Of a stretch of 64,000 bases of DNA, positions 8,813 through 11,822 are shown piece by piece. Position 1 is the first letter of the stretch. Each line of letters opens with the position of its first letter. Both the position numbers and the translations under genes were made by a program. The stretch lies in NCBI RefSeq assembly GCF_054482525.1, contig NZ_CM137006.1. One strand, given 5' to 3'. A model generated the notes under the pieces. It searched no databases, was not told where the DNA came from, and worked only from the letters and a program-made list of their open reading frames with translations.

Positions 8813-8964
8813 AAAAAGCCTCTCGCGAGGAGAGGCTTCCGCCGTGTGATAAGTTCAAGTTTGCTTCAGAAGATTCGAAATCTGTTGAACTATCATTGAA
8901 CTGTAGGCCGGATGAGGCGTTTTGAACTGCACCCCAAATGTTGGACATAATCTGACATCTGAAG

Positions 8965-9495
8965 GTGCAGTTTATGAAACATTCATTTGAAGTAAAACTT
9001 GCCGCTGTAAATCACTACCTGGCTGGTCATGCAGGCATCATTTCTACGGCAAAACTCTTTCAACTTTCTCACACCAGCCTCTCACACTGGATTAATCTTT
9101 TTCTTCTTCACGGTCCTCGGGCACTGGATTGCAGACACAAGCGTAGCTATTCTCCTGAAGATAAACTTTGCGTGGTTCTTTATGCTCTCGGGCATTCTGA
9201 GTCTCTACCCCGGGTAGCTGCCCGGTTTAACATTCCCAGCCACAACACGGTTAAAAACTGGATAAAAGGCTACCGCAAATCTGGTAATGAGGCCTTTATC
9301 AGGCGCAGGAAGGAGAAAAGCATGACCCGTTCTGATGATACCCATGAAAACGAGGCAAACATGACGCCGGAAGAGATGAAGAATGAGCTGCGTTATCTTC
9401 GCGCAGAAAATGCATATCTGAAAGCCATGCAGGAGCATCTCCTGGAAAAAAAGCGCCAGGAGCTGGAGAAAAAACGAAAGTCATCCGGAGCCTGA
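8965..9495 (+). CDS. IS3-family transposase OrfA (HTH DNA-binding, leucine-zipper region)
   Basis: 176-aa ORF; N-terminal region resembles IS150-group OrfA; contains the slippery heptamer A_AAA_AAG at 9447-9453 in frame. Confidence 0.85.
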   Translation: MQFMKHSFEVKLAAVNHYLAGHAGIISTAKLFQLSHTSLSHWINLFLLHGPRALDCRHKRSYSPEDKLCVVLYALGHSESLPRVAARFNIPSHNTVKNWIKGYRKSGNEAFIRRRKEKSMTRSDDTHENEANMTPEEMKNELRYLRAENAYLKAMQEHLLEKKRQELEKKRKSSGA

Positions 9496-9599
9496 GGTGC
9501 GGACACTGCCAGTCTGACCTGTTAAAGGCTGCAGGGCTGGCCAGAAGCACGCTGTACTACCAGCTGTCACTGCAGAAGGCTAAGGACAAGTATGCTGAT

Positions 9600-10322
9600 G
9601 TGAAACAGCTCATAGCCTCCATCTTCCATGAACACCGGGGATGTTATGGGTACCGGCGGATCCATTGTGAGCTTCAGAAAAGAGGTCTTAAGTTCAGTGG
9701 CAAAACGGTGCGAAAACTGATGCAACAGCTCGGCCTGAAGTCTCCTGTGCGCCTGAAGAAATACCGGTCTTACCGGGGAAATATGGGACTCGCTGCAGAA
9801 AATATCCTTCAGCGGCAGTTCAAAGCGGAAGCTCCCTGTGAGAAATGGGTGACAGATATCACCGAATTCAGGGCTGGCGGACAAAAACTGTACCTGTCCC
9901 CGATACTTGATTTGTTTAACGGGGAAATCGTGGCGTGGGAAACGGCCTGCAGGCCTACAGAGGAGCTGGTGAAGCGGATGTTAAATAAGGGGCTGGAAAG
10001 CCTTGCTGAAGGGGAGAAACCGCTGCTCCACAGTGATCAAGGATGGCATTACCGGATAAAAAGTTATCAGTCCGCCCTGGCGGACAGAGGGTTAGTGCAG
10101 AGCATGTCGCGCAAGGGCAACTGCCTTGATAATGCGGTAATGGAGAACTTCTTTGGTCACCTGAAAGAAGAAATGTACTATCGCCGGGACTACAGAAATG
10201 TAGAAGAGCTGGAAAATGCCGTTAACGAATACATAACTTACTGGAATCAAAAAAGAATAAAACTCAGTCTTGGGGGACTCAGTCCGGTAGAATACCGGAC
10301 TGAGCATCAAAAAGCCGGTTAA
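9600..10322 (+). CDS. IS3-family transposase OrfB (DDE integrase catalytic domain); expected to be expressed as an OrfAB fusion by -1 frameshift
   Basis: 240-aa ORF from GTG 9600; the same frame is open from 9387 and overlaps orfA; DDE-type integrase core (…HSDQGWHY…SMSRKGNCLDNAVMENFF…). Confidence 0.8.
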   Translation: MKQLIASIFHEHRGCYGYRRIHCELQKRGLKFSGKTVRKLMQQLGLKSPVRLKKYRSYRGNMGLAAENILQRQFKAEAPCEKWVTDITEFRAGGQKLYLSPILDLFNGEIVAWETACRPTEELVKRMLNKGLESLAEGEKPLLHSDQGWHYRIKSYQSALADRGLVQSMSRKGNCLDNAVMENFFGHLKEEMYYRRDYRNVEELENAVNEYITYWNQKRIKLSLGGLSPVEYRTEHQKAG

Positions 10323-10379
10323 CTGAAACTGTCCAGGTTTTGGGGTTCAGTTCAGTTTTCGCCGCATCCGGCAACGTAC

Positions 10380-11822
10380 TTACTCTACCGTTAAAATACG
10401 CGTGGTATTAGTAGAACCCACGGTACTCATCACGTCGCCCTGGGTGACAATCACCAGGTCACCAGACATCAAGTAACCTTTATCGCGCAGCAGATTAACC
10501 GCTTCGCTGGCAGCTGCTACGCCGTCATTAGCGCTATCAAAGTGCACCGGCGTAACGCCGCGATAGAGAGCAGTCAGGTTCAGCGTACGTTCATGGCGTG
10601 ACATGGCGAAAATTGGCAGACCAGAGCTGATACGGGAGGTCATCAGCGCCGTACGACCCGATTCGGTCATGGTGATGATCGCCGTAACGCCTTTCAGGTG
10701 GTTAGCCGCGTACATTGCTGACATGGCGATAGCTTCTTCCACATTGTCGAACTGAACGTCCAGACGGTGTTTAGAAACGTTGATGCTCGGGATTTTTTCC
10801 GCACCCAGGCAAACGCGCGCCATGGCTGCAACAGTTTCTGAAGGATACTGACCAGCAGCAGTTTCTGCAGAAAGCATCACAGCGTCAGTACCATCCAGAA
10901 CGGCGTTTGCTACGTCCATGACTTCTGCACGCGTCGGCATCGGGTTAGTAATCATTGACTCCATCATCTGGGTCGCCGTGATTACTGCGCGGTTAAGCTG
11001 ACGCGCACGACGGATCAACGCTTTCTGAATGCCGACCAGTTCCGGGTCGCCAATTTCCACACCGAGGTCGCCACGTGCAACCATTACCACGTCAGAGGCG
11101 AGGATGATGTCATCCATTGCATCCTGGCTGCAAACGGCTTCCGCACGTTCAACCTTGGCAACAATTTTCGCATCACAGCCTGCATCGCGTGCCAGGCGAC
11201 GGGCATAGTTCAGATCTTCGCCGCAGCGTGGGAAGGAGACAGCCAGGTAATCTACGCCAATTAACGCCGCAGTCTTAATGTCTGCTTTGTCTTTTTCGGT
11301 CAGCGCTTCAGCCGACAAACCGCCGCCAAGTTTGTTGATACCTTTATTGTTGGAGAGGGGACCACCGACGGTCACTTCGGTGAACACTTTCATGCCCTGA
11401 ACTTCCAGTACTTTTAACTGAACGCGACCATCGTCCAGCAGCAGGATGTCACCAGGCACGACGTCAGCAGGCAGGCCTTTGTAGTCGATACCGACTTTTT
11501 CTTTGTCGCCTTCACCTTTACCCAGGTTGGCGTCGAGCAGGAATTTATCCCCAATATTGAGGAAAACTTTGCCTTCTTTAAAGGTGGATACACGGATTTT
11601 GGGCCCCTGGAGGTCACCCAGAATAGCCACATGACGCCCCAGTTTTGCGGCAATCTCACGAACTTTATCCGCGCGCATTTTGTGATCTTCAGGCGAGCCG
11701 TGAGAAAAGTTCATACGTACAACGTTTGCACCCGCTGCGATAACTTTTTCAAGGTTATTATCGCGATCTGTTGCTGGGCCTAACGTGGTAACGATTTTAG
11801 TTCTGCGAAGCCTTCTGGACAT
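10380..11822 (-). CDS. pykA: Pyruvate kinase II
   Basis: ATG (complement 11820-11822) gives [43 protein letters not shown]…; 480 aa; the track ORF is an in-frame upstream extension. Confidence 0.93.

Follow-up and report, generated by a model that had tools for sequence, protein, structure and literature searches.

An intact IS1397 copy in the loop of the single REP palindrome between lpxM and pykA

The insertion sequence (IS) IS1397 was reportedly first described in natural isolates of Escherichia coli by the Hofnung/Clément laboratory, and is said to insert into palindromic units (PUs), also called repetitive extragenic palindromes (REPs), of bacterial interspersed mosaic elements (BIMEs); the element and its targeting of REP loops have reportedly been on record since the late 1990s, and its length is reported as about 1.43 kb, with inverted repeats of 25 bp. 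Here we analyze a stretch of 64,000 nucleotides (hereafter, the window) from contig NZ_CM137006.1 of the RefSeq assembly GCF_054482525.1, in which a 1432-bp element at 8923-10354 on the plus strand splits a REP that lies between lpxM and pykA, two convergent genes of which the second is also annotated pyk. The best explanation, in which we have very high confidence, is that this is an intact, probably active copy of IS1397, recently transposed into the central loop of the single lpxM-pykA REP. Compared with IS1397 as known from E. coli, the window element has the same sequence, the same pair of open reading frames (ORFs) joined by a -1 frameshift, the same 3-4-bp target duplication and the same mode of insertion at the REP centre, i.e., it is the element itself without differences; only the locus is uncommon, and the target is a solitary REP and not a multi-REP BIME. 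IS1397 and its REP-loop targeting are already known, and nothing at this locus is new in kind. Specific insertion of IS1397 into E. coli REPs has been established experimentally, and the transposase is reported to be responsible for the specificity (PMC1525189, PMC3184786).

REP targeting is found in several other elements. One of them is ISKpn1 of Klebsiella pneumoniae, which belongs to the same IS3 family as IS1397 and likewise inserts in REP/PU sequences, but is a different element with a Klebsiella-type PU as its target, set apart by its description in the literature (PMC1525189). IS621 of E. coli, a member of the IS110 family, and ISPpu9/ISPpu10, ISPa11 and ISPsy8 of Pseudomonas also target REPs (PMC1525189, PMC3184786). 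IS621 differs in family and in the chemistry of transposition; it recognizes a 15-bp REP sequence and inserts on its 3' side, outside the inverted repeat (PMC3184786), whereas the window element is an IS3-family element of the DDE type that is inserted in the loop and flanked by a duplication of 3-4 bp. With the model IS3-family elements IS150, IS911 and IS3 the window element shares the A AAA AAG heptamer of a -1 frameshift, an OrfA protein with helix-turn-helix (HTH) domains and a leucine-rich helix, TG…CA ends, and a DD(35)E rve core with a lysine seven residues after the glutamate; by analogy to these elements, it may also share their copy-out/paste-in transposition. To our knowledge, there is no example of REP-loop specificity among the three.

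In order to identify the window element, we compared its 1432 bp by megablast to 5426 complete E. coli genomes. The 30 best matches listed all agree with it at every one of the 1432 positions and bear the annotation 'IS3-like element IS1397 family transposase'; the best match reaches at least 99% identity in 1311 records, and 1707 of the genomes have a copy that spans 80% or more of the element. In all, roughly 7600 places in the 5426 genomes match IS1397. The copy between caiF and caiE of strain PCN033 shows no differences from the window copy at all. A more distant reference point is the genome of CFT073, for which two instances of IS1397, one of them within a REP, have been reported (Tobes & Pareja, PMC1525189); there we found a copy that is 99.0% identical to the window element, lies within a REP and is bracketed by the 3-bp duplication AAC. 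Seven other full-length copies were read, and each of them also measures 1432 bp. The copies labelled by the Prokaryotic Genome Annotation Pipeline (PGAP), at 100%, and the CFT073 copy, at 99.0%, are thus both above the level of 95% nucleotide identity that is expected of isoforms of one element. Because of these annotated copies, of exact protein matches under the same name (see below), and of the 99.0% identity to the CFT073 copy, the element at 8923-10354 is, as judged by nucleotide and protein comparison, IS1397 itself and not just IS1397-like, which narrows the assignment to an IS1397-like class made in an earlier, sequence-only reading of the window. The copy is intact and identical to many others, and for that reason it is probably active. 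No evidence that contradicts the identification was encountered.

One could argue, nevertheless, that some other member of the IS3 family, for example a relative of IS150 or of ISKpn1, resembles IS1397 and came to lie in a REP by chance. Length, TG…CA ends, an orfA/orfB frameshift and 3-4-bp duplications are common to members of the family, and the match to the NCBIfam profile discussed below gives the family only; against this stand the full nucleotide identity to the copies annotated as IS1397, the exact match of the protein and the 99% identity to IS1397 of CFT073. As for chance landing, we estimate its probability at about 4e-4 per insertion, given approximately 230-290 REPs per genome (table in PMC1525189) and a target of a few base pairs within each, and the observation that nine of nine loci examined have the element in REP centres (see below) excludes it. 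We regard this explanation as very improbable.

The anatomy of the element was correctly outlined in the sequence-only reading, which had called it an IS3-family element with TG…CA termini and inverted repeats, and all of these features are in place. The element begins with TGAACTG and finishes with CAGTTCA. A repeat search delineates a left terminal inverted repeat (IRL), TGAACTGCACCCCAAATGTTGGACA, at 8923-8947 on the plus strand, and a right one (IRR), TGTCCAGGTTTTGGGGTTCAGTTCA, at 10330-10354 on the minus strand; the two are imperfect, 25 nt long and 84% complementary. The first ORF, orfA (8974-9495, plus strand), encodes a protein of 173 amino acids that matches the Pfam domain HTH_28 twice, i.e., has two HTH domains, followed by a C-terminal leucine-rich helix; exactly this protein is encoded on at least 1000 contigs. 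The second frame, orfB, is in the -1 phase relative to orfA and overlaps it, being open from at least 9420 to 10322; the part that would be translated as the C-terminal portion of the fusion protein OrfAB, at 9453-10322 on the plus strand, contains the HTH_21 domain and the rve integrase core, as defined by Pfam. Within the overlap, in the phase of orfA, lies a slippery heptamer A AAA AAG (9447-9453, plus strand), the predicted site of a programmed -1 frameshift. Overlapping orfA and orfB together with an A-rich heptamer form the arrangement associated with frameshifting in the IS3 family, and frameshifting here is predicted from it.

Frameshifting at this heptamer would produce an OrfAB fusion of 449 amino acids, which agrees residue for residue with a deposited 'IS1397 family transposase' encoded on 71 contigs and annotated with 'programmed frameshift'. 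An alternative slippage site at a run of six A residues (9469-9474) was considered and rejected, as the corresponding fusion is on record once, against 71 contigs for A AAA AAG. We also looked for a stimulatory structure downstream of the heptamer; the segment 9454-9530 does not fold clearly better than shuffled sequences do (z -1.67). An Rfam scan of 8700-10500, with E-values up to 1, gave no match, neither to a curated frameshift element nor to a REP family.

OrfAB matches the profile NF033516 (transpos_IS3, IS3 family transposase) of NCBIfam with 387.2 bits, the cut-off being 160, along all of its positions (1-369 of 369); the Pfam matches are rve (7e-21), rve_2 (2.5e-20), HTH_21, and HTH_28 twice. 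The HTH region is thus N-terminal and the rve (DDE) catalytic core C-terminal in the transposase, as in other members of the IS3 family, and the imperfect inverted repeats, the TG…CA ends and target duplications of 3-4 bp are likewise those of the family. The catalytic residues are D295, D355 and E391, with spacings of 60 and 36, and K398 is found at position +7 from the glutamate. A scheme for the element can be put together from these parts. OrfA would be made as a separate DNA-binding protein with HTH domains, and -1 frameshifting at A AAA AAG would join orfA to orfB to give the 449-residue DDE transposase OrfAB; by analogy to established IS3-family biology, OrfAB would bind the inverted repeats, OrfA may modulate transposition, and the element would move by a copy-out/paste-in route through a circular intermediate.

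The target of the insertion is readily recognized. On the left of the element, a repeat search finds the REP arm GCCGGATGAGGCG at 8907-8919, preceded by GTAG, and on the right the arm CGCCGCATCCGGC at 10360-10372; the arms are 13 nt long and 92% complementary. The direct repeat GTTT that the sequence-only reading had seen on both sides of a 1432-bp element is there, at 8919-8922 and 10355-10358, and comparison to the empty site identifies it as a duplication of the last G of the stem and three T residues of the loop. The element therefore splits, in its loop, the palindrome GCCGGATGAGGCG-TTTT-CGCCGCATCCGGC. It had been predicted that removal of the element and of one GTTT would rebuild a near-perfect REP palindrome, with the insertion in its loop; the reconstructed sequence, GTAGGCCGGATGAGGCGTTTTCGCCGCATCCGGCA, turned out to be the natural, uninterrupted sequence of strains PCN033 and SCU-102, where the palindrome is intact and a single GTTT is followed by T. 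The comparison with these two empty sites shows that the duplication is 4 bp long and that the cut falls across the border of stem and loop, taking in the terminal G of the stem and three of the four T in the loop; in mechanistic terms, a staggered cut of this extent would yield the GTTT duplication.

The reconstructed palindrome is predicted to fold with energies of -24.3 and -24.6 kcal/mol on the two strands (z -5.8 and -6.3). It is extragenic, imperfect, about 35 bp long and has the consensus GCCGGAT…ATCCGGC, as expected of a REP, and the same consensus is found at eight other loci described below. Searching the 64-kb window with a strict REP pattern, and for half-sites under looser conditions, revealed no other complete CCGGAT…ATCCGG REP, and therefore IS1397 hit the sole nearby target of this type. 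The position of the insertion in a REP loop is not a matter of chance.

To see how general this choice of target is, we read the flanks of the element at nine loci, i.e., at lpxM/pyk and eight others (hemN/yshB, ybhJ/ybhC, yghU/hybG, yihN/ompL, a gene for an HTH protein/ascB, caiF/caiE, yaeF/nlpE and the remnant at yhhI/yhhJ of strain K-12). At all nine, the IS copy or the end of its remnant borders directly on half of a REP, in the middle of the palindrome. Duplications around the full-length copies are of 3-4 bp (GTTT, TTAC, TCAC, GTT, TGG and AAC), and one decayed copy has a mismatched pair, GTTA and GTTC. At least two types of REP are used, namely Y-like ones with loops TTTT, TTTA or TTCA, and a type with a long stem at caiF/caiE. 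A fixed orientation of the element with respect to the REP, on which eight of the first nine copies agreed, was rejected, since the copies at caiF/caiE and yaeF/nlpE and the K-12 remnant are in the opposite one. Thus, the specific insertion into REPs or palindromic units by which IS1397 is characterized is displayed by the window copy and at eight further loci, and the target preference proposed in the sequence-only reading is borne out by these loci and by the literature.

The regular presence of REP halves next to the element raises the question of whether they belong to the mobile unit, either as REP-like ends or as parts of a REP-associated composite, and do not represent a target that existed before. 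Every copy is indeed bracketed by REP halves, and in comparisons between copies the matches continue for 20-45 bp past the ends of the IS. Genomes without the IS, however, have an intact REP at exactly this position; the REP halves vary in type and orientation from locus to locus, being reversed at yaeF/nlpE, whereas the ends of the IS are constant; and a 3-4-bp duplication of the loop flanks each full-length copy. Mobile REP halves are, accordingly, the least probable of the explanations that we considered, and can be set aside almost completely in favour of insertion into a pre-existing REP.

Remnants and decayed copies of IS1397 make up a separate group of observations. Approximately 1780 complete E. 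coli genomes match the element but have no copy covering 80% of it, and every sampled genome of this kind, including K-12 MG1655, contains an unannotated fossil of the right end of IS1397, 56-65 bp in length. In K-12 MG1655 the fossil is located at 4424042-4424106 of NZ_CP010445.1 (401-465 of the extracted locus L014), corresponds to nucleotides 1368-1432 of the IS and is 95.4% identical to it; on one side it borders the transposase gene of ISEc1 (yhhI) and on the other side the half-REP TAAACGCCTTATCCGGCCTA, and it appears to derive from an old insertion into a REP loop, truncated afterwards. Decayed copies annotated as frameshifted are found at the ascB locus of strain 1105 (L009; 1431 bp) and at yaeF/nlpE of CFT073 (L015; 1427 bp). 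In view of these two decayed copies, old inactive copies of IS1397 therefore persist beside identical, presumably active ones.

The age of the insertion in the window can be judged from the empty sites. The sequence-only reading proposed alignment to an uninterrupted lpxM-pykA region, and the predicted empty site does exist: after removal of the IS and one GTTT, the rejoined sequence matches the region between lpxM and pyk in PCN033 at 800 of 800 positions with no gap, and SCU-102 has the same uninterrupted junction; in both strains we read the empty site itself. Of the 5426 genomes, 4938 have a single place that covers 80% or more of this 800-bp query, and just four have the IS at the lpxM-pyk locus. 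Over the 23.6 kb adjoining the site, three genomes (SCU-102, PCN033 and 19KM1776) match the window with 100.0% identity, and none of them is among those four. SCU-102 and PCN033 have six copies of IS1397 each, the best of which is 100% identical to the window copy. Because relatives with the empty site are identical in the flank and yet carry fully identical copies elsewhere, the simplest reading of the comparison is that a resident copy transposed recently within this lineage, and that the insertion is private to it.

The four occupied genomes allow a comparison of insertions at the same locus (the loci compared being L001, with the IS at 2003-3434, L011 and L012, and L002, which is strain AST215, with the IS at 2001-3432). 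WP8-S18-ESBL-07, 10035776-3 and AST262 have the IS 2 bp to the right of its position in the window, flanked by the duplication TTTC, and their allele has 15 differences; by its junction and allele, the TTTC insertion is an independent event in the same REP loop. In AST215, the GTTT junction and the orientation are as in the window, and there are differences at 21 of the 1432 nt in the IS and at 7 of 1110 nt in the flanks, because of which this insertion probably represents a third event. Altogether, insertions in the lpxM-pyk loop come with two duplications, GTTT and TTTC, and with three different IS alleles.

The junction, duplication and orientation in AST215 are what one would see if the insertion in the window were old and common by descent with other genomes that have IS1397 at lpxM-pyk. 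The differences in the IS and flanks of AST215 speak against such an inheritance, as does the fact that the window agrees in its flanks with the empty site of PCN033 and in its IS with the resident copies of the same strain; moreover, the three genomes nearest over 23.6 kb are outside the four carriers, with the empty site read in two of them, and in the remaining three carriers the junction is another one, TTTC. We find an old, inherited insertion quite improbable, even if somewhat less so than the other alternatives, and retain the recent insertion of a resident copy as the explanation.

Two points qualify our interpretation of the locus. First, the name IS1397 is taken from NCBI labels and from the literature on the CFT073 copies, and connects the element to the type sequence indirectly. 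Second, the junction is known from assembled sequence and not from reads, although the precise duplication and the exact empty site argue strongly against an artefact. Insertion sequences are well known to mislead assemblers, which may put a copy of a repeat into a gap where it does not belong, and the 5426 genomes searched do not include the source genome (best full-length match, 99.1%). A misplaced repeat, on the other hand, would not be expected to create a clean 4-bp duplication of a loop with flanks that rejoin base for base, and the site fits the known target rule of the element. The chance that the position of the IS is an assembly artefact seems to us very small, and we continue to treat it as a genuine insertion of IS1397.

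Two features of the sequence bear on expression of the transposase. A sigma-70 promoter-like site for the transposase gene, TTGAAC-18 nt-CATAAT (8922-8951, plus strand; 9 of 12 consensus positions), is found in IRL, with the first T of its -35 hexamer TTGAAC supplied by the target DNA. It is a side possibility, and an unlikely one, that the T-rich loop of the REP, by giving the -35 hexamer its first T, lets the exact position of the cut within the loop tune the expression of the IS. When folded, a transcript from the promoter-like site of the element itself (8958-8985) shows no structure. The leader of a read-through transcript (8919-8985), by contrast, is predicted to form a hairpin of -26 kcal/mol (z -5.15), which buries the Shine-Dalgarno sequence and the ATG of orfA against the tip of IRL. 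The stem of this leader is extended by base pairing between the duplicated target, GUUU in the transcript, and AAAC in codons 2-3 of orfA. Hairpins of this kind are the classical arrangement by which an IS is shielded from activation by read-through. The hairpin is relevant at this locus because lpxM reads into IS1397 in the sense direction: a read-through transcript from lpxM would enter the IS in sense, and IRL may then fold on the ribosome-binding site of orfA and limit translation of the transposase.

The neighbours of the element are lpxM, for lauroyl-Kdo2-lipid IVA myristoyltransferase (323 amino acids; 7841-8812, plus strand), and pykA, for pyruvate kinase II (1443 nt; 10380-11822, minus strand), both ORFs being annotated in loci L001 and L004, the second under the name pyk. 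They converge on the site, as noted in the sequence-only reading, and 7 nt lie between the stop codon of pykA and the right REP arm. In the mechanical ORF list, pykA begins further out, with a GTG at 11963 (10380-11963, 527 amino acids), so that it overlaps hexR; we rejected this longer ORF as an artefact of ORF listing, since the annotated gene has 1443 nt (10380-11822) in related genomes.

Directly 3' of the lpxM stop codon, between lpxM and the IS, a terminator scan detects a hairpin resembling an intrinsic terminator, GGAAGCCTCTCCTCGCGAGAGGCTTTTTTTATTT, with 11 pairs (8814-8840, minus strand). A T-run follows it on the minus strand only, and the hairpin is for that reason likely to be the terminator of pykA and not of lpxM; the same scan detected no plus-strand terminator between lpxM and the IS. 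The view that the IS separates each gene from a shared REP/terminator region holds in part: pykA is separated from the hairpin at 8814-8840, and both genes from an intact REP, but lpxM keeps the hairpin next to it.

REPs have been reported to stabilise upstream mRNA (background in PMC1525189). With the REP split, the hairpin would be destroyed for both lpxM and pykA, which may affect their expression. In addition, transcription of pykA would have to pass through 1.43 kb of IS, in antisense to the transposase gene, to arrive at the terminator at 8840-8814.

The same intergenic spot varies in other genomes as well. In approximately 487 genomes the match to the lpxM-pyk intergenic region breaks at the position of the REP. 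In one of these that was inspected, O111:H8 strain 8E (L003, 1-5941, corresponding to about 8900-10380 of the window), an island is found next to pyk, with genes for sugar ABC transporter permeases, a GH13 glycoside hydrolase, an amidohydrolase, an alpha/beta hydrolase and a Nif3-like protein, and its end lies some 60 bp away from the stop codon of pyk. The spot appears to be a point of larger-scale polymorphism.

The loop of the lpxM-pykA REP has been hit by IS1397 at least two times, and probably three, in independent lineages. We regard it as unlikely that this REP is a favoured hot spot whose occupation by the IS also produces a phenotype; were it true, loss of the REP hairpin and displacement of the terminator by 1.43 kb might alter the stability or level of pykA mRNA, and convergent transcription would damp the transposase. 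Beyond the correct annotation of the element in the window, the significance of the insertion is slight. It is useful, however, as a strain marker, being private within a lineage resembling PCN033 and SCU-102, and as a clean natural example of target choice by IS1397, with an exact empty site and an independent insertion 2 bp away.

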